DNA from: Candidatus Enterocola sp. | Lineage (GTDB): Bacteria; Bacteroidota; Bacteroidia; Bacteroidales; Paludibacteraceae | DNA length: 63,007 bases | Assembly (NCBI GenBank): GCA_045635045.1 | Contig: JAZRBL010000115.1 | Coordinates: 1-63,007, forward strand | Direction of reading: 5' to 3' | Shown here: one piece after another, positions 11,127 to 63,007 of the stretch | How positions within the stretch are numbered: the first letter of the stretch is position 1 | How the letters are laid out: the number at the start of each line of letters is the position of its first letter | Made by a program: the position numbers and the translations under genes | The notes under the pieces: model-generated | The model's input: the letters and a program-made list of their open reading frames with translations, nothing else | The model's database searches: none | What the model was told of the DNA's origin: nothing

Positions 11127-11179
11127 GACTTGCTACAAAAAATTTAAATAATTTTATTTTTTCTGCACAAGGTTTGTAT

Positions 11180-11187
11180 TATCTTTG
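11180..11187 (+). promoter_or_regulatory. -7 promoter box (TATCTTTG)
   Basis: Exact TAnnTTTG match, 23 nt upstream of the ATG at 11210. Confidence 0.5.
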
Positions 11188-11209
11188 CGACGTATCTAAA
11201 AATGCTAAT

Positions 11210-12070
11210 ATGAAACTATTTGTAAAAAGTTTGGGCTTGGCCGCTGTATTGATGGCATTGCTCAGTAGCTGCGATTACGAAACAGCGGCTTATAAAAAAT
11301 TGCGTTTAGAAAAAGACTCTATTCAAGCATTGCAACAAAGTCAATTGGGCGAAATGGAAGAGTATTTAGATCTTATACAAGATGTAGATTCTGCATTCGA
11401 CGAAATTAGACTTTCGCAAAACATCCTAACGTTTGCATCGTACGACAGTGAAAATCCTTCGCAAAACATGCGTCAAAAAGTGGCCGATAACATGAATATG
11501 ATCAATAACTTGTTAGCGGACAACCAAGCAAGAATTGCCGAATTAGAAGAAAAATTACAAGAAAGCGATTTGAAATCGACCAAGTTGCAACGCATGGTGA
11601 ACAAGCTAACCGCCGATTTGAAGAAAAAAACACAAGAAATTACCGAGTTGCGTAATGAATTGGTTAGCAAAAACTACCAAATTGATAGCTTAACCGTTGT
11701 ATACCGCATGTCGCAAGAACGCGAAGCACAATTGGTGGCTAAAACCAACCAACAAGATAGCATCGTCACCAGCCAAGATGCTCAATTGCACCGTGCTTAC
11801 TTCTTTATGGGCAACCGTCGTGCTTTGCGCGATAATGGTATCAATGTAAAAGATCGCGAATCGGGCTACCGTACCGAATTGTTTACTCCAGTTGATATTC
11901 GTGCTTTTGACCGTTTAGAAATTGGCTCAAAATCGGCTAAAATTTTAACCAAACACCCAGAATCGTCGTATACCTTGGTAGAAAATACCGATAAAACCAA
12001 GGTGTTGGTGATTAAAAATGCTACCGATTTTTGGAGCGTATCACGCTACTTGATTATTCAAACCCGCTAA
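11210..12070 (+). CDS. Coiled-coil lipoprotein, unknown function
   Basis: Start moved to the ATG at 11210: MKLFVKSLGLAAVLMALLSSC is a lipoprotein signal with lipobox Cys. The centre is heptad-rich. The track start at 11087 lies upstream of the promoter box and overlaps the previous gene. Confidence 0.6.
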   Translation: MKLFVKSLGLAAVLMALLSSCDYETAAYKKLRLEKDSIQALQQSQLGEMEEYLDLIQDVDSAFDEIRLSQNILTFASYDSENPSQNMRQKVADNMNMINNLLADNQARIAELEEKLQESDLKSTKLQRMVNKLTADLKKKTQEITELRNELVSKNYQIDSLTVVYRMSQEREAQLVAKTNQQDSIVTSQDAQLHRAYFFMGNRRALRDNGINVKDRESGYRTELFTPVDIRAFDRLEIGSKSAKILTKHPESSYTLVENTDKTKVLVIKNATDFWSVSRYLIIQTR

Positions 12071-26728: not shown

Positions 26729-28483
26729 ATGAAACAATTGGCAAAGAAAGTGGGTTGGCTGTTGGGCATTTTGGTCTGTTTGACAGCTTGTGTGGACAAT
26801 AACTACACCCTTGATAATTTAGATACTCAAATTGAGTTGGAGACCGAATTAGTGGCTCCTTTGCTTCATTCAAGGCTTAAAATCAACGACCTATTGTCGG
26901 ATAGTTTAAGCGGTATGAAATTGATAGTAGAAGGCGAAGATTTGTATTTGCTCTACGTCGATTCGCAGTACATGGGCAACGATTTGATAGATCAGCTAAA
27001 AGTGCTTCCTAAAGGTGCATTTAATTTTGATTTGCTAGTAGGAGAGGAGGCCGGTTCGTTGTCCATTACATCGGGCCAGATCAATGCCGAAGAAGTTATC
27101 GAGTTTTCGTCGATCAATACCAACGAAAACGAACGTTTGGATAGTATTTTAATAGGCGATTGTTATGCCGATGTAACCGTTGATGTACAAATGCCTTTGG
27201 CAGAAGGATCGTACATAGATTTTATTTTCCCTAAAGAAGCGTTGGAGTTGGACGAGGCGGTGTTCCCCGATAATACGGTGCGCATTCCTTTAACGGAACA
27301 ACAAACATCGTATCAACTACCGCTTAAAAAAGCCATGTTGCGCTTAAACGGTGGCCAAGAAGTAAAAGTATTGGTAAAAGGAGAAATTCATGCTTCCTCG
27401 CCTTTTGCACCTGGTGATGCTATTTCGGTAACGGTAGATATGAATAATTTGCTGCCTCATATTACCTACTTACATGTGGGAACGGCTCGCGATATCTACG
27501 AAGGTGAAAAAGTAATTGATTTTAACTACACCAGCGATTTTCAACAAGAAGACGCTTTCTTCCCTTTCTTTGACCCCCAAATTTTAATGTCGTGTATCAA
27601 TAATATTGGTGTGCCAGTGCGTTATTACATTGATTATGTAGAGGCTTTTGATACGCGTACAGGCGAGAAAGTACGTGCCGATTTTGGTGGTGCAGATACC
27701 GATACAACCTCTATGGTGGTTGCAACTCCATCGTACGATGCTATAAAAGGTTTGTCTAAAGATGAGCTTTTAAACTTTGATGTTCAGTCTATTATGTGTA
27801 AGAGCGAATTGCTTTTTGATAGAGAATTTGGTCATACCGATAGGCTTTTTAAAATTAATCCCAATAAACTACGCTACCATTATCGCATACGTTCGGTGGA
27901 TAATGACCCCACCAACGTGCATTTCTTCTTTCATAACAGCGATATGGAGTTAAAAGAAGATACCAAACTTCCGTTGTGGTTTGAGGGCGATAAAGACCCC
28001 GATAAAAACTTCCATATTACCCGTAACGATTCGGTCGATTTTTTGGCAACGTCTGATACCAGCAGCGGTTTTAGCCTGTCGGACGACTCGGAATTGGTTC
28101 TAAAATTGTCGTACATCAACTATTTGCCCGTTGGTGTAAAAGGTTCGATTGCCTTCTTGGATGCCAACGGACAGCGCATCTTGCAAGAGGCCGAGCAGTC
28201 GTTTGCCATTAAGGCCGGTAAGGTGGATGCTGACGGATATGTAGTTACTTCTACCGACGAGGCGGATGCCATTCGTTTGGCCTTTGGCGCTAACGAGGCT
28301 AGTCGATTGTTGTCGGAGGTGGCTACCTTTTTGTTTACGTATAAGTTGGCCAATAACGAACTGAAAACCGTACGTTTACGTACCAGCGATTGGTTGGACT
28401 TAAAGGCGAGTATGTACATCAATGGATCTTTGGTGACCGATTTGGGAAGTTGGATGAATAATGACTATGTTGTAGTAGAATAA
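26729..28483 (+). CDS. Large lipoprotein, unknown function
   Basis: 584 aa. Signal and lipobox LVCLTAC. Family not recognised. Confidence 0.6.
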   Translation: MKQLAKKVGWLLGILVCLTACVDNNYTLDNLDTQIELETELVAPLLHSRLKINDLLSDSLSGMKLIVEGEDLYLLYVDSQYMGNDLIDQLKVLPKGAFNFDLLVGEEAGSLSITSGQINAEEVIEFSSINTNENERLDSILIGDCYADVTVDVQMPLAEGSYIDFIFPKEALELDEAVFPDNTVRIPLTEQQTSYQLPLKKAMLRLNGGQEVKVLVKGEIHASSPFAPGDAISVTVDMNNLLPHITYLHVGTARDIYEGEKVIDFNYTSDFQQEDAFFPFFDPQILMSCINNIGVPVRYYIDYVEAFDTRTGEKVRADFGGADTDTTSMVVATPSYDAIKGLSKDELLNFDVQSIMCKSELLFDREFGHTDRLFKINPNKLRYHYRIRSVDNDPTNVHFFFHNSDMELKEDTKLPLWFEGDKDPDKNFHITRNDSVDFLATSDTSSGFSLSDDSELVLKLSYINYLPVGVKGSIAFLDANGQRILQEAEQSFAIKAGKVDADGYVVTSTDEADAIRLAFGANEASRLLSEVATFLFTYKLANNELKTVRLRTSDWLDLKASMYINGSLVTDLGSWMNNDYVVVE

Positions 28484-28495
28484 GGAGGGTAGGAT

Positions 28496-30085
28496 ATGAA
28501 AAAGTTACAGATTTTATTTTTTAGCTTAGTAAGTTGTGTGGGCGCATTTGCAGCACCTAATTCGTTGTATTTTATGGATTTGTTGCCCTATCAGGTGTAT
28601 CAAAATCCAGCCATGCGTCCCCTTTCTGATGTGTATGTAGAAATTCCGGGTATTTCTACGGTAGGAGCATCGTTGCATTTGGGTAGCTTGTCGTTGAACG
28701 ATGTAGCCTATGTAAAAGATGGTAAATTGGTTACCTTTTTGCATCCCGAATATGGCAACCAAGCGGGCTTCTACAATAAATTGCAAAATACCGAACATTT
28801 TAGAGCGGATGCTTATACGAGTTTTTTGGGATTTGGTTTTAAGCAAGGCGAAAAAGGGTATTTGTCTTTCAATCTATCTGCCAAAGCCGATGCGTTGCTA
28901 TCGGTACCCAAAGAATTTTTAGGTGTATTGTTAGAAGGAACCCCCGATACCTTGGGCGTGAACCGATTTGATATGAGCAATACGGCATTGCGTGCTAATC
29001 TTTATCTTGATTTATCGGCTGGCTATTCGCATCAAATTAACGAGCAGTGGCAAGTTGGGGGTAGGGTGCACTTGTTGTTGGGAGCTGCCTCTATTCATAC
29101 TACGTACGATCAATTCTATTTGGATGCCTCAAAAGACGAGTGGACACGCAATGCGGTAGGAAAATCGGCTGTTTCGCTTCCGGGTTTGACAATTGTTGAT
29201 GGGGAACCTTATATGGAGGATATCGAGACTGCTTTAGTGTATTATAGACCCAGTATGGGTGCGGCATTCGACTTGGGTGCTGTGTACAAGCCCCTTCCAG
29301 AACTATCGCTTAGTTTGTCGCTAACCGACTTAGGCTTTATGGTATGGGACAATTCGTTGATTACCCAGGTAAATAGCAAGGCAACCTACGATGGGGTAGA
29401 ATATGAAGCCGGTGTGTCTCCCATTGACGAATTAACAAAAGAGTTGGGGTCGTTGTTGGTGTTGCCAAAAGGGGTGGCGCAATCTAGGCAGTTTGTAAGC
29501 GAACTGCGTGGTAAATTGTATGTAGGCGCCGAGTATAGCTTTTTGCGCAACATGATGAGCGTGGGCTTGCTATCTAAAACCGAGTTTATGTCTAAATACG
29601 TATCGGAAGAAGTGAGTTTGAACTACAAGATACGTCCTTGCCACTGTTTTGAAATTTTGGCCGGTTACTCGTTTGTGTCGGGCGGATGGTCTACCATGAG
29701 CTTTGCCATGGACCTTAAACTACCTCCGTTTAATTTTTACGTAGCTACCGACTATGTACCCTTCCATTATTCGCCCAACGGGCTTCCTTACAAATCGCAA
29801 GCCCTTAATGTGCAAGCCGGTGTTGTGCTTACGTTCAATACCAAAGATAACGTAAAACGCTTAAAAGGCAAATTAACCGAACCCGAAGTTGTATTCCCAG
29901 AGAAAGAACCAACTACGCTCTCTGAGCCTGTAGACGTGCCCGCCGCAACCGATCCCCAAGCGGTCCCTGAGCCCGCCGAAGTAGAAACCTCGGTGTCTAA
30001 TACCACAGTAACCGAAACCGTTACCGAAAAAGTAGAAGAGGTGCAAGGCGATGAGGTAGGCGGAACCAATGTGGTGAAGTTGTAA
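28496..30085 (+). CDS. Putative outer-membrane protein with Pro/Glu/Thr/Val-rich tail
   Basis: 529 aa with a signal peptide. The body has alternating hydrophobic/aromatic strands of the beta-barrel kind. The tail is low-complexity: EPEVVFPEKEPTTLSEPVDVPAATDPQAVPEPAEVE. Confidence 0.5.
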   Translation: MKKLQILFFSLVSCVGAFAAPNSLYFMDLLPYQVYQNPAMRPLSDVYVEIPGISTVGASLHLGSLSLNDVAYVKDGKLVTFLHPEYGNQAGFYNKLQNTEHFRADAYTSFLGFGFKQGEKGYLSFNLSAKADALLSVPKEFLGVLLEGTPDTLGVNRFDMSNTALRANLYLDLSAGYSHQINEQWQVGGRVHLLLGAASIHTTYDQFYLDASKDEWTRNAVGKSAVSLPGLTIVDGEPYMEDIETALVYYRPSMGAAFDLGAVYKPLPELSLSLSLTDLGFMVWDNSLITQVNSKATYDGVEYEAGVSPIDELTKELGSLLVLPKGVAQSRQFVSELRGKLYVGAEYSFLRNMMSVGLLSKTEFMSKYVSEEVSLNYKIRPCHCFEILAGYSFVSGGWSTMSFAMDLKLPPFNFYVATDYVPFHYSPNGLPYKSQALNVQAGVVLTFNTKDNVKRLKGKLTEPEVVFPEKEPTTLSEPVDVPAATDPQAVPEPAEVETSVSNTTVTETVTEKVEEVQGDEVGGTNVVKL

Positions 30086-38195: not shown

Positions 38196-38955
38196 GCTTA
38201 TCTATTTTAGTACAGAATATAAGTTCGTCGTAAGTAATGGTAATTTTTTTATAGATGTTGGCATCGTTTTTATGTGGATATTGCAAATACCATGCCCGTA
38301 ATTTTTCCATTTTAGATTCGTAGTGGGTTAGTTTGCCCAATTCTATGTAGGCAATACCTTGTCTGCTGGTAAGCCGAATGTTTTGCTTTTCGTCTACGTG
38401 TACCTCATAAAATAGGGCGGCCCAATCCTTGTCTAACAAAAGGTATTGCATAAAATCGTACAGTTCGCCTTGAGCAAAATGGGTATTTACGTTGCCCGTT
38501 ACGATGGGGGTGTATGCGGTAAATAAGCTGGAGGTAGGCATTGGGCGTCGTTCGTTATCCATGTAATAACTTTTCCCTTCTACTGGCAAAACACGAAAAA
38601 GCGGGCAACGTTGGTACAAATTGATATGAAAATCACCCTTGTAGCCCATATAACATTCCACTTTTTTAATAGGGCTTAGTTGGGCAATGCTTTTTTCGAT
38701 GCGATGCGCCTCTTCTATACCTATCAACGTGCCAATAGGGTTGATGTTGTGTTTGGCCAAGTGATCGTATATCATAGAGGCATTTACAAAACCATGTTCC
38801 ATGCTATCTTTAACACATACACTTACACGGTTGCACTGTATTTTTTGGTCGGGTTTCTTAAAGTAGATGAGAGCAAAAATACAGTACCCTAACAAGCATG
38901 TAATGCATGTTATAATGGCAATAAGCGACAGAATATGTTTTACTTTTGGGTTCAT
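38188..38955 (-). CDS. ftsQ: Cell division protein FtsQ-like (POTRA)
   Basis: 255 aa. N-terminal TM segment followed by a POTRA-like region. Its position in the dcw cluster supports the call. Confidence 0.7.
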   Translation of the reverse strand: MNPKVKHILSLIAIITCITCLLGYCIFALIYFKKPDQKIQCNRVSVCVKDSMEHGFVNASMIYDHLAKHNINPIGTLIGIEEAHRIEKSIAQLSPIKKVECYMGYKGDFHINLYQRCPLFRVLPVEGKSYYMDNERRPMPTSSLFTAYTPIVTGNVNTHFAQGELYDFMQYLLLDKDWAALFYEVHVDEKQNIRLTSRQGIAYIELGKLTHYESKMEKLRAWYLQYPHKNDANIYKKITITYDELIFCTKIDKHE

Positions 38956-41564
38956 TTAGTCAGTGACGATAGGTATTTCGTAACTTTAGGTACTTCTTGG
39001 TCTATGTTTCCCGCGCCAATGGTAATTAATACATCAAAAGTATGATTTTTAAGTTCTTCTACCAAGGCCTCTTTGGGACTACAAATGGTTTTGTTTTTAT
39101 GCTTGATGTATTTGGCAATAAGCTCTGAATTAACCCCTTTAATGGGTAGTTCACGAGCTGGGTAAATATCGAGCAAAATAATATCGTCTAGTTGTGTTAA
39201 ACTTCTGGCAAAATCGCGTGCAAAATCGCGTGTGCGGGTATACAAGTGAGGTTGAAATACACCGCATATTTTTTTGTCGGGATACAATTGACGGATTGAA
39301 CTTACGCAAGCCTCAATTTCGGCAGGGTGATGAGCATAATCGTCGATGTAAATGCATTGCTCGTTTTTTACTTGTATGTCAAAACGACGTTTGTTGCCCT
39401 TAAACGAGGCTACACCTTTGCGCAATTGTTCGTCGGTAGCGCCATTTAATTGCGCAATGGCCATGGCTGCAACCGCGTTTTCTACATTAATTAGCACAGG
39501 AACACCCAACTCTACGTTGTCAATGCGACCTTTGGGCGAAACAAAGTCAAAAAATAGTTGACCGTCCACGGTTACGATGTTTTCGGCATAGAAATCGGCT
39601 TGTTCTGTGGTAGAATATTGGTATACCGTAACATCGGGGTGTGTAGTAGGCACTAATTCTAGTCCTTTTTTCATTACTAAGGTGCCTCCTGGTTCAATAA
39701 GCGCTGTAAAGTCGGCAAATCCTTTAAGTAGTTCCTCGTGACTACCATAAATATCCAAGTGATCGGCATCGGTAGCGGTTATAATGGCCATTTTAGGGGT
39801 TAGGCGCAAAAACGAACGGTCGTACTCGTCGGCTTCTACCACTACATCGTTGCTTTGTTTGCTACTTAGCAAGTTGGTATCGTAATTTTTGGCAATCCCA
39901 CCCAAAAAGGCATTTACTTTCTCTGGTCTTTGGTTTAATAAGTGTGCCAATAGGGTAGATGTGGTGGTTTTGCCGTGTGTGCCCGCTACGCAAAGTGCAT
40001 TTTGCCCATGGGTAAGTTCTCCCAGTATCTCGGAACGTTTTAGCAAGGTAAAATGCCCTTTTTGGAAGAATTGCAACTCGCTATGGTTGGCAGGGATAGC
40101 AGGCGTATAAACTACTACCGTGTTTTCGATGTCCATAAAGCGAACGGGAATTTGGCTAATGTTGTCTTCGTAATGAATTTTAATGCCTTCGTCTTCTAGT
40201 GCTTGGGTGAGAGGAGTATGTGTTAAGTCGTAACCTCCTACCAAGTGTCCTTTTTGGTGAAAATAGCGGGCAAGAGCACTCATTCCAATGCCTCCAATGC
40301 CTAAAAAGTAATATTGGCGCATATATTGGGATGGAGTACCAACAACTTCCGATTTAATCGATGCGACGTTATCGCTACCTGTTATTTCTTCTATTTGCTC
40401 TTCGCTCTGATTTTCTGTTACAGGGCAAGCGTTGATGTCAATAGTAGGCAATTGAATCAGTTGGAATACCTCATTGGCGATGCTAGATGCAGCGTGAGGG
40501 CGTGCAAAATAGGTGATATTTTCGCTCAAGGTATCCAATTGTTTTTTGTCTTGAATCAATTGGATGGTTTTGGTAAGCAGTTGCTGAGGGGCATCTTTAT
40601 CGGACACCATAACAGCGGCATTTCGCTCTACCAAAGCAAGTGCGTTTTTGGTCTGATGGTCTTCTGAAACGTTGGGCGAAGGTACCAATAGACAAGGTTT
40701 TCCAAGTAGACTGAGCTCTGAAATAGAGCTAGCACCTGCGCGCGAAATTACCAAGTCTGCAATGCTATAAGCAAGGTCCATGCGGGCAATAAAATCGGTG
40801 ATTACCATATTTTTAATGGGTAATGCACTGGTTTTCATTTTAATATCGTCGATATAAAATTTACCTGTTTGCCAAATTACTTGCAAATCGTTTTGGTGTA
40901 CCATGTAAAGCAGTTCTAAATCTTTTAAGATGCTCTCGTTGATGGTACGTGCCCCCAAGCTGCCTCCAATAATTAACAAGGTTTTTTTCTTTGCAGAGAA
41001 GTTAAAGAATTGGTAGGCCTCGTTGCTGTGGTCTTTTATTTTTAGTAAGTTTTGTCTTACCGGATTGCCTGTCATTACGATGTTGTTGGCAGGAAAGAAA
41101 CGTTCCATGTGGTCGTATGCAACACAGATTTTTTTGGCTTTTTTGCCCAAAATCTTATTGGTGATGCCTGCGTACGAGTTTTGTTCTTGAATTAAGGTAG
41201 GTATGCCTTGCTTGGCAGCTTGGTACAATACAGGTGCGCTGGCATAGCCTCCTACGCCAATAGCAATGTCGGGCTTAAAATCTGCTATAATTTTTTTGGC
41301 TTTCGATAAGCTTTTAAAAAGGTTTTTAAGCACTGTAAAGTTTTTGGGGGTAAGCGAACGGTACAACCCCTGAATGGGCAACCCAATGATATCGTATCCG
41401 GCAGCAGGAACTTTTTCCATTTCCATGCGTCCTTCTGCCCCTACAAATAAGATTTGTGAGTTAGGGTAGGCCTCTTTGATAGCATTGGCAATAGATACGG
41501 CAGGAAAGATGTGTCCACCTGTTCCTCCACCACTGATAAGTATGCGTTTGTTGGTTGTGTCCAT
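38952..41564 (-). CDS. murG-murC: MurG-MurC fusion protein (lipid II GlcNAc transferase + UDP-MurNAc:L-Ala ligase)
   Basis: 870 aa in one frame. Residues 1-~370 are MurG (ILISGGGTGGHIFPAVS, GGYASAP, GGSLGAR, RAGASSISE). A ~45-aa acidic linker follows. Residues ~415-870 are MurC (MRQYYFLGIGGIGMSALARYF, GTHGKTTT, DDYAHHP). Confidence 0.85.
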   Translation of the reverse strand: MDTTNKRILISGGGTGGHIFPAVSIANAIKEAYPNSQILFVGAEGRMEMEKVPAAGYDIIGLPIQGLYRSLTPKNFTVLKNLFKSLSKAKKIIADFKPDIAIGVGGYASAPVLYQAAKQGIPTLIQEQNSYAGITNKILGKKAKKICVAYDHMERFFPANNIVMTGNPVRQNLLKIKDHSNEAYQFFNFSAKKKTLLIIGGSLGARTINESILKDLELLYMVHQNDLQVIWQTGKFYIDDIKMKTSALPIKNMVITDFIARMDLAYSIADLVISRAGASSISELSLLGKPCLLVPSPNVSEDHQTKNALALVERNAAVMVSDKDAPQQLLTKTIQLIQDKKQLDTLSENITYFARPHAASSIANEVFQLIQLPTIDINACPVTENQSEEQIEEITGSDNVASIKSEVVGTPSQYMRQYYFLGIGGIGMSALARYFHQKGHLVGGYDLTHTPLTQALEDEGIKIHYEDNISQIPVRFMDIENTVVVYTPAIPANHSELQFFQKGHFTLLKRSEILGELTHGQNALCVAGTHGKTTTSTLLAHLLNQRPEKVNAFLGGIAKNYDTNLLSSKQSNDVVVEADEYDRSFLRLTPKMAIITATDADHLDIYGSHEELLKGFADFTALIEPGGTLVMKKGLELVPTTHPDVTVYQYSTTEQADFYAENIVTVDGQLFFDFVSPKGRIDNVELGVPVLINVENAVAAMAIAQLNGATDEQLRKGVASFKGNKRRFDIQVKNEQCIYIDDYAHHPAEIEACVSSIRQLYPDKKICGVFQPHLYTRTRDFARDFARSLTQLDDIILLDIYPARELPIKGVNSELIAKYIKHKNKTICSPKEALVEELKNHTFDVLITIGAGNIDQEVPKVTKYLSSLTK

Positions 41565-52727: not shown

Positions 52728-52817
52728 ACTTTTAGTTGGTTTTAACATTTTTGCTTTATTATGACTATAATAAGGTGGGTTTTTTGCGTTTTTACTTGAA
52801 AATCTGCCAAAAAAACA

Positions 52818-52825
52818 TAACTTTG
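52818..52825 (+). promoter_or_regulatory. -7 promoter box (TAACTTTG) for the giant ORF
   Basis: Exact TAnnTTTG match, 24 nt upstream of the ATG at 52849. Confidence 0.5.
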
Positions 52826-52848: not shown

Positions 52849-55800
52849 ATGAAAAAATCAATTGTTCGAAAAATCGCCCTTTCGGCGTCTCTTTTTTGGG
52901 CGGCTCTTACTGCGCAAGCCGCTTATACGGTAGCTGTTTACGAAACTGCAAATCCTACCAACGTTAGGCATTTTGAGTTTGTATCTGCTGGTACCAATGT
53001 TACCAATCAATTAATAGCCAATATCGAGGCTCCGGCTGCGTTGGATGCTTGCTCTTTTTGGGTAGGCCAAGACAATGCGCAAGTGCCTGGTGTGTCGGTT
53101 GAGCAAACCCTTAGCTCGTTGATGAATGGGGTTTCTTGTTCGGGCACCTCGTTTAGCTTTACCATCTACGCAGGGGGTGCAGATGCTAACTACAAGCCAG
53201 AGAACTTTAAGTGTATCGACACTGCCGAGTATACCTACGGTATGGCTTGCTGGCCAGAACAACTAACGCTTCATTGCTCGGGTGGTGCGGCTTCGGCGGC
53301 TAATCATATCTTTACCAAAAATGGCAGTGTATGGACGTATCATTTTGAGGTAAACGATCCCAATTCTACTTTCAAATTGCTAAAGAGTCCCGATGGCGCT
53401 ACTTGGAATTGGGATGAAGGACAATTAGGACACTCGCAATCGGGTACCCAACTTCAAGCAGGATCGGGTATTACGGTAGAGAACAATGGACAAGGAAATA
53501 TTGCTTTGCAGCTTGCCGGTGTGCAAGCGGGCGATCAGGTAACACTTACCTTGCAAAAAAATGGCGCGGTGTATACCTTATCGGCCGAATACATGGCTAA
53601 ACCCATTTTGGAAAATACCAGCCAAGTATGCGGCGTAAACCCTGTGGTATCTTGTAAGGTTAAAAACTACAATTCTGCCGTTTATACCTATACATACATT
53701 GTTAATGGAGGAACCGAAACACCGCTTGCCTCTGATGTTGTAGAGGTGCTTTATCCTACTCGTTTTACCGAATATAGCCTAGTAGTAGTGGCCTACAAAG
53801 ATGGCTCGCGTGTTACCTCTGATGTGTTAGAAGTATTGGTACCTGCTAGGGTATCAGAACCGGTGTTGGTGGCCAATACAGCGGCTTGTGGTGCCGAAAT
53901 TGGTTTTACCATTGCCAATTACAGTGCTTATGCTACGGGTGTAACGTTCCAAGTTCCTACGGGATATGTGCAAAATGGGTCCAAAATTTCGTTGGCAGGT
54001 GCTCCTGTAAACGGAACGACCTATACGCTGTCTGTTACAGCCGATGATGGTTGTACTACGGCAACAAGTGCTCCAGAGAGTCAGACTTACATGGCTGACC
54101 CTGCTCAACCTACCCTTCTCGCTAATTCGGTTTGTAATCAGTTGACATTTACAGTAGATCAGCCCGAGGCTACTTATCGCTATCAATGGATGATAGATAA
54201 TGCACCGGTGACGCCTACAGGCAACTTGTATGCGGTTACCGGTAGTACACACGGTATGTTGCATACGGCTAAAGTATCGGCCTTTGCACCCAATGGATGT
54301 TCTGCAACTGGAACCCAAACGGGTACCTTTTATGCCACCCCCGATAAGCCTCAAATCACTACCAACGAGGGTTGTGGCAACGATGTGGTGTTCAAGCTTA
54401 CCAACTACGATGCTACGGCAAAGTATAAATGGACCATTTCTACATCAACGGGTGTTACCCAAACGGTAGAACCTCAAAATGGTACCGATGAGTACAAAGT
54501 GGCTTCGCCTATAGAAGGCACTGTTTATACCATGCAAGTAACAGCATGGCGCGAAATGGCAGGTGGTGCCACTTGCTCGGTAATGTCGGATGCTGTGTCG
54601 CAACTATGTAAATTACAACCTGCTCCTCCTGTAGTAGCAACGCCCATTTATCAAGTATGTCAACAAGAAGGCACTCAATTGTGGGCCGACTTGGTGCGCG
54701 TATCAACCGGTAATACCTTGGTGTGGTACGATATGGCTGGTAATCGAATGCTGGTATCGTCGGATGTGTTCTCTTTTGACATGAACATTCCTACCAATGG
54801 CACTCCTATTCAATACCAAGTAGCACAACTGTCGGCCTACGGATGCGAAAGTGAAAAAGTGACAGTAGGGGTAAATGTGGTAGAAAAACCCCTGGCGATG
54901 GCAGGTGTAGATTTGGAAATTTGTTCGGCGTCAACAGGTGTTCGCTTGGCCGAAGGCGAGGTGGAAAATGCCAATATGGATTATGCATGGTCGCCTGCTA
55001 GTTATTTAGAAAATAGCCATGTGGCATCGCCCACATTGACACATCTCAATGTTAATACAGATGATGTAATTGAATTTACCCTTACGGTATCGAACAAGAA
55101 CATGCCTTCTTGTAGAAGTACAGACCAAGTAAAGGTAAAAGTGTTGGCCTTGCCGCAAGTAACCGTTCAAGAAACTACTACGGGTATTATTGATGTGTGC
55201 GAAGGCAGTGCAATAGGGGTTACCATTGTTCCCGAAGCCGGTATTACTTACAACTGGATAGACCCCAATGGTGTGTTGGCTAGCAAAATGAGTACATCTG
55301 CTATTACGCATCCTATTGTGGCCGATCAAACCATTTCGATAACAGCAACTCGTCGTACAGAAAACACAGAATGTGTTAGCCAACCCAAAACCATTGAGTT
55401 CAAAAAAGTAGATTTGCCTGTATTCAGTGCCAGTGGTGGCAAGGGTGATAGATTGTCTGTTTGCGATGGCAAAACCATTCAATTGGGCGAGCAAGGCAAT
55501 AATCAAACCGACTATCGTTGGGAAAGTCTTCCTGCAGGCAGATTGGATAGCCGTATTCCTAATCCTTACATTACGGTTACCGAAGATGTTACCTATATTG
55601 TAACCGCAACCCTTAAGCAAGCTCCTAATTGTTCTACCAGAAGTGAGGTGTATGTAGAGCGTGCGGCTTTGCCCACCCAATACACCTTGTCAGCAGAGGG
55701 TACCAATCTTTACTGCGAAGGGGGCACCGGGGTAACCTTGATGTTGAGCAGCTCGGATACATACGTAGAGTATGCCTTGTATCGTGGTGGAGTAGAAGTG

Positions 55801-58800
55801 CAAACTTGGCAAGCGGGTACTGGCGGTATTTTCCGTTGGACCAATGTGACATCGGGTATATATACCGTTAAAGCCCGTGTTATTAGCGCCAATCCCGATG
55901 AGCAATGTGCGCAAGACATGCTAGGTCAGGTGGAAGTGATAGAAAAACCAGCTCCCAATGTAACCGTTAGCAGTGTGGGCGACGTAACTTGTCCTGGTGA
56001 CGAAACCGTGGTAAAATTGTCCTTTACCGGCGAACCTCGTTTCTATGCTAATATTTTGATTGACGGGGTGTTGCAAATTATTCAAACCGACGATAGAGAG
56101 TACGTATTCCCTTATACACCTCGTAATTATACCGATATCAAGGTGATTCAAGTAACCGATAAAAACTGCGATTTTGTGTATGCAGAAGAGAACCAGCCCA
56201 CCTTATCGTTCGATATCGTCAATATGGAGGACTTTAAAATTCATTCGTCCGATTCACACGCCAAAATATGTCCCGGAAACTCTGTAACCTTGTCTATCAA
56301 CCACGTTCCCTCTCCTGGTGATGATGTTGAGGTAAAATGGTCTACCAATGCTAGCGAGGTTTCGTCTATCCAAGTAGCACCCTCTGAAACAACCACTTAT
56401 AAATTAGAGGTGCATACCAACAATGGGCGATGTGTCTTTACCGATAGCATTACCATTGCTGTGGCAGAGATAAACGATTTGTCGATAAATGGATTGGAAG
56501 ATAAATTCTTCTGCTCTACCGAAACTGCTATCCCCATTACTGGTTCTCCTCAAGGGGGTGGATTCTCTTCCGATTATCCAGGCTTTGTAGACGGAGGATT
56601 CCTTTATCCCAATGTAGTAACTCAACAAGGTAGTACCGAAATTACCCTAACCTACGAGGTAAATAACGACGGTTGCGAACAAACCATTGAAGAGAAAGTG
56701 ATTGTAGACTATGTGCCGAACAATGTTAATTGGTGGGTAACTCCTGTGGCACAAGAGCCCGACGTAAATACGTCGTATCGCTATTGTATGCCCGATCCGG
56801 ACCAACCCGTTAAAAAACTAACCTTGCAAGGCTTCCCCATTCACCCCAATGGTTACTTTACCATTTTGAGTGCCGATAATACAGGTCAGCCCGATCCCGG
56901 TCCATACCAAGTAGCTGTTGTACCAAACGATGTAGAACGTTCTTTGTGGGATATTATTAATTTATCGAGTGGTGAGTATAAAATTATTTATACCGTTCCC
57001 GTAAATACCCAAATGGGTTGCGCGGCATCGTCCGATCCTAAAACCATTACTATCGACCCTGATTTTAGCGAAATTATTGATAACGAAAACATTTACTTGC
57101 GTAACAGCAAAGGACAAGTAACCAATGTGTTGTGCGAAAGCGATACAGAAGCTACCTTGTATGCCGATATTCAGGCTCCTGGTAAATATACGTTGAGTAT
57201 GCCTGGTATGTTGGTATCGCAAGACCAAACCAAAAGTATTGCTACTATCAATCCTTCGGTAGTACAAGGACACAACGGTAACCACCGTGCCGTATTGACC
57301 ATGGAAGACAACCACGGCTGTCCACACAAGTATTCGTTAGACTTTAAAATTACCAGTCCCGTTAACATTCACTCGTTTGGCTTGAGTAAACGTGACTTCT
57401 GTTCGTACGACGAAGATGAACCCATCCAGATTACCTCCGAAAGAGAAACCGATGGTACCATTAGTGTTTATCGTAAAAAGGCAGACGGAACCGAAGAGTT
57501 AGTGGACGCAATGGTGCCTAAAACAGCTCCTCCTTACTTCAGTCCTAAGTCGTGGGGTGCAGGCGAATACCGCATTGAGTATACCTATACTGATATTGAT
57601 GGTGTGTGCGAAGCTACTGAGTCGACCACTGTATTTGTGCACGAGCCTCCTACCATTAATCTAAACCTATTAGAAGATTATTGTAAAGGTGAACAAATAG
57701 AACTTAAAGCAACCCCCGATGGTGGTTATTACGAAACCTCTGCTCCCGATGGAACCATCTTGTTTAGTCATTTTGATACCGATAAAGTTGCCGTTGGTTT
57801 GTACACCATATCGTATACTGTAAGAAACGATAAGGGTTGTGAAAGTAAGGATTCTATTGAAGTGGAAATTCACGGCACCGAAAATATGAACATTTTTGGC
57901 TTTAACGACAGCCGCAAATATTGTTCTCCTTCGGGTAGCATAACCATCAGTGGTTTCCCCACCGAGAATGGCGAAGGTTCGTTTACGGGTCCTGCCTTCT
58001 TAACCAACAGCACTACCCAAGAAGGGTATGCTACGTTAGACTTGACCCAAGCCGACTTTAATACATCGTACGATGTAACCTATCATTACGTAGAAACCTA
58101 CACCGACCAATTTGGTGTGGACCAAACCTGTGAATCGACCACTTCGGAACGCTTTACGGTAATTAACGAAGCCATCGATTTTCATGGTATCGACGAAAAT
58201 ATGACCGTTTGTGGTTACGAAACCGTATGGCCATTGCGTGCCAATAAGACCGAAAACGTGCGTTTTGAAATGATCCCTGCATCGGCATCGGATGCCTTGA
58301 GAGACAACGGCGATGGAACCGCCGAATTGTATCCTAACTTGTTGCCCGAAGATGCTATTTATGCAGTTACTGCCTACTATAGCTACATTGAAAACGGTGT
58401 AGAGATTTGTTCGAGCACAAGAACCAAATCCTTTACCATTGCTAACATTGCGCAAGTGGCCGATGTTACCTTGTTCTGCGACGGTGGCGAAAATGCGGTT
58501 CGACTCAAGAATGTAGAATCGACCGTAGAATACGAACTTACCGTAAACGGTGTGCCTTTTGCTCGTCTATCGGGTGCCGACCAAACCCCAGAGGGTAACC
58601 TAGACTTCCCTGCCATTGCGTTGAGCCAAGCACACATTCAAGTGGCAGGTTACGAAGCCGGTTGTAAGGTGGCCATGTCGAAAGAATTAACCATTGCACG
58701 CTTAAAAATTGATTCGTTAGTAGTAAAAGACATTACCTGTGCCGGCGAATTAGACGGAAAGGCGCAAGCGTACATCAGTGGTGGTAGCTTACCTTATAAT

Positions 58801-61800
58801 CATAGCTTTACCGATGCCAATGGCAATAGCTTTACTGATTCGTTTATCCAAGGACGACCAGCAGGAGCATTTACTTATTCGGTGAAAGACGATATTGGTT
58901 GTGAACGTACTGCAACCTTTAGCATTACTACACCTACTGCATTGGATGCCAATATTTACTTTACCAATCCAAAATGTGATGGCGGTATTACTGGCTCGGT
59001 ACGTGTAGAGCCTGTTAGTGGATCGGGTAGTGCTCCTTATACCTACAAGTGGTACGATATGCGCGATTTAAGTACCGTAATAGCCGAAACGGCCGCCATA
59101 GAAGAACTAACTAGCGGACAGTATCGTTGCATTATTACCGATAAAAATGGCTGTAGCATTTCGCGCGAAGCAAGTATCAAAGCTCCAGCGCCTTTGAATA
59201 TAACGTTGGTAGAAAAACAAGACGTTGCTATTACCGGAGAAGCAACTGGCTTTATTGAGGTAAAAACTCATGGTGGTAATCCTGATTATACTTACACATG
59301 GGTAGGTAATAGCTATCCTGCTGGTTATACTACCACCGAGGCTCGTTTAGAAAACCTATTGGCAGGTATGTATCATATCAATGTAACCGATGAACGTGGT
59401 TGTACAGATTTGATTACCGTAGAGTTAACACAACCTACCTTAATTGTATTGGATGCCAAGGTTACACCAGTAAGTTGTTCTGGTAAAAATGACGGTGCTA
59501 TCCAAATGACCGTATCGGGTGGCGAATGGCCATACCAATTGATAGAGTGGAGTTGGGTAGACGAAAACGGCGTACCACAAACCTCTACCAACCAAAGCTT
59601 GACCGGTTTGAAAGCTGGTTTCTATACCTTCAAAGTAAAAGATGCCAAAGGCAATTCTGCCGAAATGATCTATCAAGTAGAAGAACCTTTACTATTAGAA
59701 GTAATAGAAGATGCTTCTACTGTATTAGCTGTACCTTGCTATGGTGCCGAAACGGCTAAAATGCGTGTTGTAGTAGGTGGCGGTACAGCACCCTATGCAA
59801 TTACCTGGCCCAATGTTCCTGCCGATAACGTATCGGACGATGAAAAAGAAGCCTTCAACTTGGGCAAAGGTAGCTATACCGTTTATATTAAAGATGCCAA
59901 TGGTTGCGAAACCCAACTTACCCGCGAGGTGACCCAACCCGATGCCCCAATGGCGTGGGTGAAAGCCGAAGTGGTGGCCGAAAATGCATGCGCCGGCGAT
60001 AACAACGGCAAAATAGAAGTGGAAGTAACAGGTGGTACCCCAGATTATAGCTATGAATGGTCGGGCGTGGGTATTGTCAACGCAAACGACCAAAACCAAG
60101 AGCAACTTGTTTCTGGCAATTATCATTTGGTGGTAACCGATGCAACTGGCGAATGTACGCTAGAAAAAGACTTTGTTGTTCAAAAAAGAGAAACCTTGCA
60201 AGTAGAGGCATTGGGAACCCATGTTACCTGCCACGGTGCAAACAACGCTACCCTTACCGCTAAGGTGTTGGGCGGTGTGCCAGAATACCAATGCAAGTGG
60301 ACCGATGCCGACGGAAATGTTTACACCGGTGCAATGCTTAGTGGCAAATCGGCAAGTACTTATAATTTAGAGGTAACCGATGCGGCTGGTTGCGTGGGCA
60401 ATAGCTCTATTACCATTACCGAACCAACCGCCTTGCAAATAACCACTACTGTAAAAGATATTACCTGTCACGATGCCAACAATGGTGAGGTGTCTGTTAC
60501 AGCAACAGGTGGAACTGCCGATTATACCTACAAATGGGAAAAATTAGGCAGTACCCAAGAGTATCCAAGTGTAACCTTGTTGACTCATTTGGATGCAGGC
60601 GATTATCGTGTTACCGTAACCGATGCCAATAATTGTTCCATTCAATTGGAAACCCCATTGATTATTACCAATCCCGAAGCCCTTACCCTTACCTACGAAG
60701 TGCAAAGAGTAGCAATAAAAGGAGATGCTACGGGTGCGATTAAGTTGAACGTACAAGGCGGAACAGGAGTCTACACCTACTATTGGTCATCAGGTCCTAG
60801 CATTACCGATGCCAACAATGATTTGTCAGAAATAACCCAACTGTTGGCAGGTAATTATACCGTTATGGTGAAAGACGAAAAAGGCTGTGAAGTATCGGCT
60901 GTAATCAATGTGCCACAAAACGAAGATATTGTTATCACCGCTCAGGTAACTCCTATTAGCTGCCATGGTCAAAGTACCGGTCGTATTGAGATTACTGGCA
61001 TTGAAGGTGGTGATGGTAACTACACTTACGAATGGACATCGCTACATACAGCCTTTACATCGACCGATAAAAACCTAGCTGGTTTGGCACCCGATGAATA
61101 CTACTTAACAGTAACCGACGGTGCAGGTGCAACTGCTACGGCTAATTATGAGTTGGTTGACCCACAAGAGATAGTGATTTCTACCATCGATATTTACTCG
61201 CAATTAGCAGTAAGTTGCTATGGAAAGAAAGATGCCTCTATTCGCATTGACGTTGAGGGAGGAGCCACACCATACCAAATTACCTGGAGCAATCCTAATA
61301 TGGTAGCACAACCTACCGACCCTATGTTGGCAGAAGGTTTAAAAGAGGGTGACTACCAAATTACCGTTGTAGATGCGTTGGGTTGCGAAAAAACACATCA
61401 ACAACATATCTCAGGGCCTACCGCACCGCTTGCCATTGTTCCTACCATTACCAATAACAAGTGTTATGGCGAAACCATGGGGGCTATCGATATAGCGGTA
61501 TCGGGTGGAACACCAGGATACACCTTTGCTTGGTCGGGCGGTTTGGGATTGGTACCCGATGCCGAAGACCAAACAACCTTGCACAGTGGCGAAACCTACC
61601 GTGTAGAAGTTACCGATGCCAACGGATGCAAAGAACAGGGCGTATATACCTTAGATGCACTTACCCCAGTACAATTTGACGTATTTAAAGAAGACGTTAG
61701 CTGTTATGGCGAAAAAACAGGTAAGGTATGGGCCACCGAACCAATGGGTGGAACCGGCAATTTTGTGTATCGTTGGAAAAACGAGGACGGAAGCATCAAC

Positions 61801-63007
61801 GTATCGCAGTTAACATTAGAACCTGTTATTGCAGGTAAATATACGTTCTCAGTAACCGACGGTAACGGATGTTTCTTGGAAAAAACCGTCGATGTAGCGC
61901 AACCTGCCCACCCACTTACTGTAACCATTGAAGGCGACAAAGTGTTGTGTACAGGTACGGCTAATGGTACGCTATATGCCAATGTTCCTCATCAAGAAGC
62001 CGATAGAAATTACAGTTATGTATGGTATAAAGACGATGTAGAACATGCACGTGGAACGGCTCAACTATCCAACCAAGGTGGTGGCAACTATCGCGTGGTA
62101 GTAACCGATAGCAAAAACTGTCCAGCTTCAGCCTCTACGACGGTTAATAGCTCGCCTCCGATGAACATCAACATTGATGTTACACACGTAGAGGTGCAAG
62201 GAGATGCCTCGGGTGCTATTAACGTAGAGGTATCGGGTGGTACTCCCGAAATTAAATATACATGGACAAGCGATAATATAGACATCAATCATAAACACGA
62301 TCAAGACCAAAGTGGTTTGGTGGCAGATGCTTACGAGTTGATGGTAACCGATTTGTATGGTTGTAAAATTGATACGCTTATTTATGTAAAACAGCCCGAG
62401 TCAATGCAAGTTAACTCTGCTATTAGGAACATTGAATGTTATGGTCAGCAAGGTTCGATAGAGTTGCGTGTACAAGGCGGTAAACAGCCCTACACGGCTG
62501 AATGGATAGGTCCTGATGGCAATCCATATCCATCTACCGAATTGAATATTTATGGATTGAATCCTGGCCGATACGAAGTTACTATTTACGACAGCGGACG
62601 CAACAATAAGGTAGGTCCATTGGTATACAACATTGCCGAAAAAACAGCCGTAGAGGTTGCTATGTTGCAGTCGAGTGTAACCAATATACCTTGTTATGGT
62701 CAAGAAGAGCGTGGTAGCGTTGCTATCCAGGTAATGGGCGGTACCGAACCATACAGTGTAAAATGGTTGGGTAATGGAATGACCGAGGACCACAACAATA
62801 AATTTGCCGTATCGGGTCTAGAAGTTGGTTTGTATAAAGTAGAAGTAACCGACCGCAACGGTTGTACACCCGCTCAAGACTTAGAGTTTGAGATTACCGA
62901 AAACGGACCTCTTGAATTGGAGGCTGAAATAGAAAATAATACCTGTCATGGAGTGAATGCAGGTTCTATTAAAGTAACTGCTACGGGCGAAGGAACACTT
63001 TCGTATC
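52849..63007 (+). CDS. Giant secreted cell-surface protein with SprB-type repeats (3'-partial, at least 3,386 aa in window)
   Basis: The ATG at 52849 gives MKKSIVRKIALSASLFWAALTAQA, a signal peptide. This frame stays open to the window end. I hand-translated 52849-55150 and checkpoints at 56401, 57661, 60001 and 62941. The frame is absent from the ORF track, which lists only stop-terminated ORFs. The C-terminal third carries SprB-repeat signatures. Confidence 0.85.
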   Translation, partial: MKKSIVRKIALSASLFWAALTAQAAYTVAVYETANPTNVRHFEFVSAGTNVTNQLIANIEAPAALDACSFWVGQDNAQVPGVSVEQTLSSLMNGVSCSGTSFSFTIYAGGADANYKPENFKCIDTAEYTYGMACWPEQLTLHCSGGAASAANHIFTKNGSVWTYHFEVNDPNSTFKLLKSPDGATWNWDEGQLGHSQSGTQLQAGSGITVENNGQGNIALQLAGVQAGDQVTLTLQKNGAVYTLSAEYMAKPILENTSQVCGVNPVVSCKVKNYNSAVYTYTYIVNGGTETPLASDVVEVLYPTRFTEYSLVVVAYKDGSRVTSDVLEVLVPARVSEPVLVANTAACGAEIGFTIANYSAYATGVTFQVPTGYVQNGSKISLAGAPVNGTTYTLSVTADDGCTTATSAPESQTYMADPAQPTLLANSVCNQLTFTVDQPEATYRYQWMIDNAPVTPTGNLYAVTGSTHGMLHTAKVSAFAPNGCSATGTQTGTFYATPDKPQITTNEGCGNDVVFKLTNYDATAKYKWTISTSTGVTQTVEPQNGTDEYKVASPIEGTVYTMQVTAWREMAGGATCSVMSDAVSQLCKLQPAPPVVATPIYQVCQQEGTQLWADLVRVSTGNTLVWYDMAGNRMLVSSDVFSFDMNIPTNGTPIQYQVAQLSAYGCESEKVTVGVNVVEKPLAMAGVDLEICSASTGVRLAEGEVENANMDYAWSPASYLENSHVASPTLTHLNVNTDDVIEFTLTVSNKNMPSCRSTDQVKVKVLALPQVTVQETTTGIIDVCEGSAIGVTIVPEAGITYNWIDPNGVLASKMSTSAITHPIVADQTISITATRRTENTECVSQPKTIEFKKVDLPVFSASGGKGDRLSVCDGKTIQLGEQGNNQTDYRWESLPAGRLDSRIPNPYITVTEDVTYIVTATLKQAPNCSTRSEVYVERAALPTQYTLSAEGTNLYCEGGTGVTLMLSSSDTYVEYALYRGGVEVQTWQAGTGGIFRWTNVTSGIYTVKARVISANPDEQCAQDMLGQVEVIEKPAPNVTVSSVGDVTCPGDETVVKLSFTGEPRFYANILIDGVLQIIQTDDREYVFPYTPRNYTDIKVIQVTDKNCDFVYAEENQPTLSFDIVNMEDFKIHSSDSHAKICPGNSVTLSINHVPSPGDDVEVKWSTNASEVSSIQVAPSETTTYKLEVHTNNGRCVFTDSITIAVAEINDLSINGLEDKFFCSTETAIPITGSPQGGGFSSDYPGFVDGGFLYPNVVTQQGSTEITLTYEVNNDGCEQTIEEKVIVDYVPNNVNWWVTPVAQEPDVNTSYRYCMPDPDQPVKKLTLQGFPIHPNGYFTILSADNTGQPDPGPYQVAVVPNDVERSLWDIINLSSGEYKIIYTVPVNTQMGCAASSDPKTITIDPDFSEIIDNENIYLRNSKGQVTNVLCESDTEATLYADIQAPGKYTLSMPGMLVSQDQTKSIATINPSVVQGHNGNHRAVLTMEDNHGCPHKYSLDFKITSPVNIHSFGLSKRDFCSYDEDEPIQITSERETDGTISVYRKKADGTEELVDAMVPKTAPPYFSPKSWGAGEYRIEYTYTDIDGVCEATESTTVFVHEPPTINLNLLEDYCKGEQIELKATPDGGYYETSAPDGTILFSHFDTDKVAVGLYTISYTVRNDKGCESKDSIEVEIHGTENMNIFGFNDSRKYCSPSGSITISGFPTENGEGSFTGPAFLTNSTTQEGYATLDLTQADFNTSYDVTYHYVETYTDQFGVDQTCESTTSERFTVINEAIDFHGIDENMTVCGYETVWPLRANKTENVRFEMIPASASDALRDNGDGTAELYPNLLPEDAIYAVTAYYSYIENGVEICSSTRTKSFTIANIAQVADVTLFCDGGENAVRLKNVESTVEYELTVNGVPFARLSGADQTPEGNLDFPAIALSQAHIQVAGYEAGCKVAMSKELTIARLKIDSLVVKDITCAGELDGKAQAYISGGSLPYNHSFTDANGNSFTDSFIQGRPAGAFTYSVKDDIGCERTATFSITTPTALDANIYFTNPKCDGGITGSVRVEPVSGSGSAPYTYKWYDMRDLSTVIAETAAIEELTSGQYRCIITDKNGCSISREASIKAPAPLNITLVEKQDVAITGEATGFIEVKTHGGNPDYTYTWVGNSYPAGYTTTEARLENLLAGMYHINVTDERGCTDLITVELTQPTLIVLDAKVTPVSCSGKNDGAIQMTVSGGEWPYQLIEWSWVDENGVPQTSTNQSLTGLKAGFYTFKVKDAKGNSAEMIYQVEEPLLLEVIEDASTVLAVPCYGAETAKMRVVVGGGTAPYAITWPNVPADNVSDDEKEAFNLGKGSYTVYIKDANGCETQLTREVTQPDAPMAWVKAEVVAENACAGDNNGKIEVEVTGGTPDYSYEWSGVGIVNANDQNQEQLVSGNYHLVVTDATGECTLEKDFVVQKRETLQVEALGTHVTCHGANNATLTAKVLGGVPEYQCKWTDADGNVYTGAMLSGKSASTYNLEVTDAAGCVGNSSITITEPTALQITTTVKDITCHDANNGEVSVTATGGTADYTYKWEKLGSTQEYPSVTLLTHLDAGDYRVTVTDANNCSIQLETPLIITNPEALTLTYEVQRVAIKGDATGAIKLNVQGGTGVYTYYWSSGPSITDANNDLSEITQLLAGNYTVMVKDEKGCEVSAVINVPQNEDIVITAQVTPISCHGQSTGRIEITGIEGGDGNYTYEWTSLHTAFTSTDKNLAGLAPDEYYLTVTDGAGATATANYELVDPQEIVISTIDIYSQLAVSCYGKKDASIRIDVEGGATPYQITWSNPNMVAQPTDPMLAEGLKEGDYQITVVDALGCEKTHQQHISGPTAPLAIVPTITNNKCYGETMGAIDIAVSGGTPGYTFAWSGGLGLVPDAEDQTTLHSGETYRVEVTDANGCKEQGVYTLDALTPVQFDVFKEDVSCYGEKTGKVWATEPMGGTGNFVYRWKNEDGSINVSQLTLEPVIAGKYTFSVTDGNGCFLEKTVDVAQPAHPLTVTIEGDKVLCTGTANGTLYANVPHQEADRNYSYVWYKDDVEHARGTAQLSNQGGGNYRVVVTDSKNCPASASTTVNSSPPMNINIDVTHVEVQGDASGAINVEVSGGTPEIKYTWTSDNIDINHKHDQDQSGLVADAYELMVTDLYGCKIDTLIYVKQPESMQVNSAIRNIECYGQQGSIELRVQGGKQPYTAEWIGPDGNPYPSTELNIYGLNPGRYEVTIYDSGRNNKVGPLVYNIAEKTAVEVAMLQSSVTNIPCYGQEERGSVAIQVMGGTEPYSVKWLGNGMTEDHNNKFAVSGLEVGLYKVEVTDRNGCTPAQDLEFEITENGPLELEAEIENNTCHGVNAGSIKVTATGEGTLSY
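58702..63007 (+). repeat. 18 tandem degenerate SprB-type repeats (~79 aa each) inside the giant ORF
   Basis: Recurrent pattern: C-x-G-x3-G-x-[IAV]..GG-x2-[PD]-Y-x-[YF]-x-W ... L-x2-G-x-Y-x-[VL]-x-V-x-D-x2-GC. Examples: ISGGSLPYNHSF, THGGNPDYTYTW, VTGGTPDYSYEW, ATGGTADYTYKW, VSGGTPGYTFAW, VMGGTEPYSVKW. Confidence 0.75.

Follow-up and report, generated by a model that had tools for sequence, protein, structure and literature searches.

Within T9SS, the type IX secretion system, each type B substrate has a dedicated PorP/SprF-family carrier, to which it stays bound on the cell surface (PMC9143113; PMC12618676). In Flavobacterium johnsoniae the destination of such a substrate is set by the pair formed by its C-terminal sorting domain (CTD) and its carrier: SprB and Fjoh_4750 move along helical tracks, and Fjoh_3952 is static (PMC12618676). 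The carrier SprF is joined to the moving track by a disulfide between its Cys326 (part of the C-tail motif Cys324-X-Cys326) and Cys343 of GldK; the SprF cysteines are dispensable for carrier function, and in Porphyromonas gingivalis the equivalent job is done by PorG via a single cysteine (Cys232), so that the cysteine arrangement is flexible (PMC12635249). Gorasia et al. have postulated that type B cargo is static where a porE-like gene stands beside the porP-like gene and mobile where none does (PMC9143113). The present analysis concerns the giant gene at the end of a stretch of DNA from Candidatus Enterocola sp. (Paludibacteraceae, Bacteroidales; assembly GCA_045635045.1, contig JAZRBL010000115.1), referred to here, over its full length of 63,007 nucleotides, as the window. 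An earlier reading of the window, made without database searches (the sequence-only reading), had proposed that this gene specifies a very large secreted SprB-repeat surface protein. It is concluded here that the product of the gene is very probably a surface adhesin of T9SS type B, served by a PorP/SprF-family carrier of its own.

The gene lies on the + strand at 52849..63007, where translation from the ATG meets no stop in 3,386 codons and is cut only by the window edge, leaving the 3' end open. The other five frames of the same interval contain 69-240 stops each, and from base composition the probability that the giant frame would contain none is ~1e-87. The frame is absent from the list of open reading frames (ORFs) of the window because the lister omits ORFs that run off an end, as the sequence-only reading had supposed; the short antisense ORFs that are listed across the gene are shadows. 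Comparison with its closest orthologue (L001, described below) gives a ratio of nonsynonymous to synonymous substitution rates (dN/dS) of 0.13 overall, with values of 0.12 in the N-terminal head, 0.09 in the chain of immunoglobulin-like (Ig) domains and 0.17 in the SprB block, and the gene is under purifying selection. The uninterrupted frame claimed from the ATG at 52849 is therefore upheld by the translation, the stop counts and the dN/dS. The GC content of the ORF is 45.0%, compared with 42.6% for the window, and the protein, in the part encoded within the window, is composed of T 10.5%, V 9.0%, G 8.3%, A 7.8% and N 5.8%, in agreement with the Thr/Val/Gly/Asn-rich content ascribed to it before. 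Given the open frame, the low dN/dS and the collinear orthologues, the last 10 kb of the window are the 5' three quarters (~77%) of a real giant-adhesin gene of ~4,395 codons.

The final portion of the window protein (residues 1958-3386; 58720..63007, + strand) is a block of SprB repeats. A search with PF13573 (SprB), which the sequence-only reading had called for after noticing SprB-type repeats, gives E=1.1e-99 and 326 bits against a cutoff of 28, distributed over 12 stretches. From residue 1962 to residue 3386 a self-iterated hidden Markov model resolves 17 complete units, spaced ~82 aa apart, and the beginning of unit 18, which the end of the window cuts after its first 22 residues. The number of units is exactly 18 in each of three orthologues (L001, L002 and L003), and the array consists of three 6-unit super-repeats. 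Mean identity between units at offsets 6 and 12 is 30.7% in L001 (26.8% when permuted) and 34.9% in L003 (27.9% when permuted), and the observed value was reached by 0 of 20,000 permutations in both cases. In both of these lineages, moreover, units 3, 9 and 15 are without the first cysteine and units 4, 10 and 16 without the second; retention of this pattern between lineages that are 34% identical suggests constraint on the number of units and on the disulfide pattern. A single unit, modelled with AlphaFold2 from an alignment of the window's 17 units, is predicted to be an all-beta, Ig/PKD-like sandwich (predicted local distance difference test, pLDDT, 91.2), and a Foldseek search of the PDB with this model returned generic Ig/PKD-like sandwiches, the best at a template modelling score (TM) of 0.56 and none at E<=1e-3. 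The earlier statement that the protein ends in SprB repeats holds insofar as the block reaches the edge of the window; it does not hold for the protein, which in the orthologues leaves the array ~35 residues past that edge and continues for ~970 residues more.

The missing 3' end can be followed in these orthologues. A scan of species-representative genomes located the same gene in metagenome-assembled genomes (MAGs) of Paludibacteraceae and Bacteroidia: L001 is 92% identical across all 3,386 residues, L002 (from dairy cattle colon) 71% and L003 34%, and L004 (from sheep colon) covers the first 131 residues only. The frame is still open where the fetched DNA ends, at >4,033 residues in L001, >4,031 in L002 and >3,761 in L003. 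With the aligned post-SprB tails of L001-L003 as query, a metagenome scan returned L005 (the rest of the L001 contig), L006 (88% identical) and L007 and L008 (45-47%), all of which reach a stop. For L005 and L006 the length of the protein is 3420 + 975 = 4,395 residues, from which it follows that the window lacks ~1,006 codons; in the orthologues, at least, the full gene and its stop do extend beyond what the window would hold, as had been anticipated. Full-length relatives range from 4,157 to 4,473 aa, and the same gene pair has been called in public assemblies, with adhesins of 4,364 aa (GCA_965328165.1) and 4,157 aa (a rumen-type metagenome). Beyond the SprB array the orthologues contain Ig domains of the POM152 type together with a pair each of PKD_6 and PKD/PKD_4 domains, and at the C-terminus they carry CHU_C. 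This last domain matches PF13585 in L005 at 32.6 bits (cutoff 27), and precomputed CHU_C matches exist on the relatives of 4,364, 4,157 and 2,942 aa. Six orthologues retain the hallmarks of the CTD: FPTAFTPN, IFNxWGxxVF, GWDG, G-Y-Y and, at the terminus, L-[IV]-R. NCBIfam gave no match on the window protein, nor on the post-SprB tails of L001 and L003 that lack the last ~360 residues. The predicted T9SS sorting domain is thus found in the full-length orthologues only, above cutoff as CHU_C and below it as TIGR04131 (see below).

The same orthologues bear on the question of whether the gene is functional at all. Giant repeat-rich genes are prone to assembly error and this one is cut by the window end, both of which would favour a pseudogene in decay, or an assembly artefact in which repeats were collapsed or expanded and the frame survived by chance; a word-indexed protein search pointed the same way, since the N-terminal 700 residues (52849-54948) yielded 8,000 candidates and no match, and the head alone two fragments. 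These negatives are artefacts, because full-length orthologues (4,157-4,473 aa) sit in that same collection, and negatives from searches of this kind are untrustworthy for giant repetitive proteins. Mis-assembly of the repeats is unlikely because the SprB units, which share only ~26% identity, are far too divergent; frame, 18 units and domain order are identical in independent assemblies from different samples, and dN/dS is 0.09-0.17 in all regions. A non-functional gene is accordingly most improbable, and this explanation is effectively already refuted.

A type B adhesin should be accompanied by its carrier, and in L005 a 331-aa gene of the PorP/SprF family starts 18 nt after the adhesin stop (TIGR03519, 153.9 bits against a cutoff of 90.55; PF11751, 142 bits over the full profile). 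The sequence-only reading had placed such a gene directly downstream, and that is where the orthologues, and only they, have it; the adhesin-carrier arrangement recurs in L006, L007, L008, L016 and L017. A carrier of 36% identity follows the 2,942-aa SprB/PKD_6/PKD_4/CHU_C protein in a different genomic neighbourhood, and therefore the cassette, not the locus, is the conserved unit. The carriers of L005-L008 all end in NDRSFFCY. In a set of 120 database relatives, FFCY closes all full-length carriers of the orthologous group (at least 56% identical), and every organism-named member of that group is a Paludibacteraceae MAG; the next tier of carriers (~36% identity) all end in FFC[YHKR]. The penultimate cysteine is in this way invariant across ~85 full-length clusters down to 36% identity. 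Among PorP/SprF proteins further removed, most show one cysteine, in a 'PCP' context, and a few show none; one 'PCP' carrier stands behind another kind of cargo, which has no SprB repeats. The Cys-X-Cys motif is absent from all orthologous carrier C-tails, which have the single invariant cysteine instead, and no porE-like gene stands beside any carrier examined; what follows the carriers is a small ORF resembling an outer-membrane protein, a regulator, a transporter, PfkB or DUF4290. A PDB sequence search with the carrier gave nothing useful. Public pipelines already name these partners 'PorP/SprF family type IX secretion system membrane protein', and for the giant orthologues, too, precomputed SprB/PKD/CHU_C matches are already on record.

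Two of the genes downstream of the carrier deserve description in their own right. A conserved ORF of 163-173 aa lies directly 3' of the carrier (L005 14056-14547, L006 14016-14537, L007 12212-12727, L016 11107-11598); it has a signal peptide, is rich in Gly and aromatic residues, ends in GVRY[LA]F and looks like a small outer-membrane beta-barrel, and it has no Pfam, NCBIfam or PDB match. It is not PorG-like, because it has no conserved cysteine or C-tail, and it is absent after the carrier in L017 and L018, where PfkB is found instead. A gene for a hemerythrin-LuxR (GerE) regulator (L005 14683-15633) lies between this small ORF and a YidE/YbjL-type transporter, and the closely related L006 and L016 have no such gene there.

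If the protein behaves as experiments have established for its class (PMC9143113, PMC12618676, PMC12635249), it would cross the inner membrane via Sec, its own PorP/SprF-family carrier would recognise its CTD at the SprA/Sov translocon, and the protein would then remain bound to that carrier as a surface-anchored filament, ~130-190 nm long by scaling, with the orphan head presumably at the distal end as the likely binding tip. The penultimate cysteine of the carrier (in the FFCY terminus of the periplasmic C-tail) could in addition form a disulfide with GldK/PorK of the periplasmic track or ring, in the manner of SprF Cys326 and PorG Cys232; by that analogy the chances of such a bond are evenly poised. 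That coupling of carrier and track would propel the adhesin, giving gliding, is a doubtful further step; the coupling may instead do no more than bear the load of an adhesin that stays in place.

Several observations weigh against this account of a type B adhesin and its carrier. The TIGR04131 match in L005 scores 24.6 bits, below the cutoff of 35 (E=2e-5 in a search of the C-terminal 500 aa), and extra residues are inserted in the CTD behind its TPN motif. Both CTD and carrier are seen only in orthologous contigs, the closest of which is 92% identical over the shared 3,386 residues. Profile searches found no T9SS or gld gene among the ~45 window ORFs scanned, and the head has no fold recognisable by Pfam or AlphaFold2, the adhesive role of the protein being putative. 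As to the proposed disulfide, the carrier has one cysteine and not the Cys-X-Cys of SprF, and in F. johnsoniae the C324A variant of SprF, left with a single cysteine, forms the cross-link with low efficiency and fails to sustain gliding (PMC12635249).

The evidence on the carrier also bears on whether the adhesin moves. A functional counterpart of SprB would be part of a complex hooked covalently to an extended GldJ/K/N track and driven along the surface, for gliding or as a conveyor, in strictly anaerobic ruminant-gut Paludibacteraceae. The SprB repeats, the type B CTD and the adjacent SprF-family carrier speak for this, as does the fact that purifying selection has kept the gene pair in lineages as little as 34% identical; the lack of a porE-like neighbour is the arrangement tied to mobile cargo (PMC9143113), and the invariant C-tail cysteine recalls SprF, in which Cys326 alone bonds GldK (PMC12635249). 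These points are countered by the absence of sprC and sprD, whose place upstream is taken by two lipid acyltransferase genes, set off from the giant gene by a hairpin and a separate promoter (see below). Paludibacter is described as non-motile, which likewise counts against propulsion, and literature searches returned no statement settling gliding or T9SS genes in Paludibacteraceae. Furthermore, the carrier has one cysteine where close SprF homologues have an invariant twin motif that is needed for gliding, and most commensals are believed to have given up gliding (PMC12635249). Even a glider has some type B adhesins that, paired with cognate carriers, do not move (PMC12618676). A driven adhesin of the SprB kind is regarded as less likely than not, and the identity with the mobile gliding adhesin SprB that the sequence-only reading had implied is not established, there being no sprC/sprD and no twin cysteine, and type B adhesins being not all mobile (PMC12618676).

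The adhesin might on the other hand be purely static, binding, for example, plant fibre, a host surface or other cells while anchored by a carrier that is uncoupled from the track and whose cysteine has another role or none. Such a case exists in Fjoh_3952, which with its carrier gives only static foci (PMC12618676), and the gut habitat (dairy cattle colon for L002, sheep colon for L004) is one in which gliding is generally considered lost (PMC12635249); carriers without the twin-cysteine motif and a locus without sprC/sprD are what would be expected. The invariance of the penultimate cysteine over ~85 full-length clusters argues instead for a function, and the carrier has no porE-like neighbour that could link it to peptidoglycan. 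That the adhesin is purely static is judged a substantial possibility, somewhat short of an even chance, and overall a static adhesin and propulsion appear about equally likely. The most specific version of the latter, in which ruminant-gut Paludibacteraceae, strict anaerobes from an order where gliding is considered mostly lost, keep a mobile SprB-type adhesin that is hooked to the GldK/PorK track by the single FFCY cysteine and works without SprC/SprD, as a minimal anaerobic conveyor with a unique orphan head, is rather unlikely.

Whichever of these applies, the probable T9SS type B adhesin begins with a predicted export signal, followed by a head. The N-terminus (MKKSIVRKIALSASLFWAALTAQA, followed after the cleavage site by AYTVAV) shows on inspection the basic n-region, hydrophobic core and A-x-A site of a Sec signal peptide, predicted to span residues 1-24 (52849..52920, + strand) with cleavage after AQA. 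Orthologues at 34-92% identity have an equivalent leader, followed by a mature start [AV]YT[VL]A, which together agree with the classical signal peptide proposed in the sequence-only reading. The head that follows (residues 25-260; 52921..53628, + strand) has no Pfam or NCBIfam match and, by self-comparison, no internal repeat. When 1.84 billion representatives were searched exhaustively by HMMER with residues 1-330, no more than 12 reached E<=1e-3; two of the 12 are full-length giants, of 4,389 aa (82% identity) and 4,473 aa (38%), and the others are fragments or low-information. As judged from these searches, the head (~235 aa) is an orphan domain restricted to this adhesin family. Residues 1-287 are 42.6% identical to L003, compared with 34% for the rest of the protein. 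The AlphaFold2 model of the head is poor (pLDDT 53.9), and therefore no fold search was justified. Two apparent leads were set aside: a SusE/F-like glycan-binding module, suggested by a weak P0129 match (E=8.6e-6), for which Pfam shows nothing significant in either protein, and matches of head residues 144-175 to P0125, P0127 and P0128, which reflect chance similarity to an FG-GAP-type propeller motif.

Between head and SprB block lies a chain of divergent beta-rich domains (residues 261-1957; 53629..58719, + strand), which sliding phmmer self-comparison resolves into ~20 domains of ~85 aa. Most contain cysteine, and locally related sets occupy residues 257-600, 690-965 and 1185-1740. Profile matches in the chain are limited to sub-threshold K319L-like PKD, Y_Y_Y and Filamin hits. 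The first domain (residues ~255-335) was modelled as a beta-sandwich with pLDDT 72-87.

Upstream of the giant gene, RNA folding identifies a putative intrinsic terminator at 52744..52792 (+ strand), between the gene for a GNAT acyltransferase and the giant gene, in the form of an AT-rich hairpin with a stem of 12-13 bp followed by UUUUUU. Of low stability in the window (-7.3 kcal/mol, z -1.9), the hairpin scores better at the corresponding site of L001 (z -2.6) and of L002 (z -5.2), and it is conserved in the alignment. A consensus terminator scan found no match upstream of the giant gene, because the scan demands at least 3 G-C pairs and the hairpin is AT-rich. The Bacteroidota promoter consensus is TTG / TAnnTTTG, and a candidate of this type is read at 52796..52825 (+ strand), with TTG at 52796-52798, a spacer of 19 nt and TAACTTTG at 52818-52825. 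This -7 box ends 23 nt before the ATG, which agrees with the box noted upstream of the start by the sequence-only reading, and each of the five loci aligned (the window, L001, L002, L004 and L003) has TAnnTTT[G/A] there. In view of the hairpin and of a -7 box of its own, the giant gene looks like a separate transcription unit. A sigma-70-type match at 52742-52771 (+ strand; TTAACA, 18 nt, TATAAT, 11/12), which overlaps the hairpin, was discounted because Bacteroidota use another consensus, and it is probably irrelevant in this host. The order of genes upstream is a divergent dcw cluster (mraZ, rsmH, ftsL, ftsI, murE, mraY and onward), Acyltransf_2, the GNAT acyltransferase and then the giant gene, and L002 and L003 share this synteny with the window; the locus gives the impression of old age and vertical descent and does not resemble an island.

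Some other genes of the window may be recorded here. Within the dcw cluster a single ORF of 870 aa (38952-41564, - strand) is an apparent MurG-MurC fusion, with Glyco_transf_28 N and C domains at residues 8-349 and a complete MurC-type Mur ligase at 418-851. At 11087-12070 (+ strand) a 327-aa protein matches the NCBIfam family of Cbp1-family collagen-binding glycoprotein adhesin lipoproteins at 225 bits (cutoff 90) and is a second putative adhesin in the window. A 584-aa ORF at 26729-28483 (+ strand), with no Pfam or NCBIfam match, precedes one at 28496-30085 (+ strand) for a 529-aa protein that matches DUF5723 over the full length (278 bits) but has no NCBIfam match, and for which a PDB search found no relative; the two may be an uncharacterised pair of envelope proteins.

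For annotation, the analysis means that 10 kb that appear empty in the ORF track are one gene cut by the end of the window. The gene extends a known, well-understood class and does not constitute a new one; what is modestly new is the 3 x 6 organisation of the repeats, the invariant FFCY tail travelling with SprB-repeat cargo, the orphan head and the fixed position beside dcw. It defines a conserved two-gene cassette (giant SprB-repeat adhesin and FFCY carrier) in ruminant-gut Paludibacteraceae and related Bacteroidia, and the lineage-restricted head is the obvious candidate for determining what these bacteria adhere to. If the carrier cysteine does bond GldK/PorK, the cassette would lend itself, as a single-cysteine case, to testing the 2025 model that bases gliding and T9SS energisation on a disulfide to the track, and would bear on whether gut Bacteroidales retain propulsion of surface adhesins.

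Compared with known systems, the putative type B adhesins of PMC12618676 are likewise organised as two genes, for cargo and dedicated shuttle, with conserved type B CTD motifs, and differ in being much smaller and not known to carry this domain order. In P. gingivalis, a non-glider of the Bacteroidales, the type B cargo PG1035 is similarly held at the surface by a PorP-family barrel (PMC9143113); PG1035 is, however, a small T9SS accessory and not a giant adhesin, and PorP is paired with PorE, whereas no porE-like gene is adjacent here. The single C-tail cysteine with which PorG bonds PorK (PMC12635249) also belongs to an outer-membrane barrel, as it would in the FFCY carriers, although PorG is 8-stranded and not a member of the PorP/SprF family. 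The closest likeness, drawn from domains and gene arrangement and not from direct sequence alignment, is to SprB/SprF of F. johnsoniae: a giant repetitive protein of the surface that contains PF13573 repeats and a type B CTD and has a predicted Sec leader, a PorP/SprF-family carrier gene directly downstream with no porE-like neighbour, and a cysteine in the periplasmic C-tail of the carrier. The protein described here is shorter (~4,395 aa, compared with 6,497 aa for SprB), and its SprB repeats (18 units, 3 x 6) make up only a third of it, flanked by Ig/PKD domains and the orphan head. Unlike the sprCDBF locus, its own has no sprC/sprD upstream (in the window, L002 and L003); its carrier tail has one cysteine (FFCY) where SprF has Cys-X-Cys; and its host belongs to an anaerobic gut lineage of Bacteroidales, whereas F. 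johnsoniae is an aerobic soil glider. Without sprC/sprD and the twin cysteine it is therefore not filed as an SprB orthologue; in export and anchoring the adhesin-carrier pair probably works in the way of SprB/SprF.

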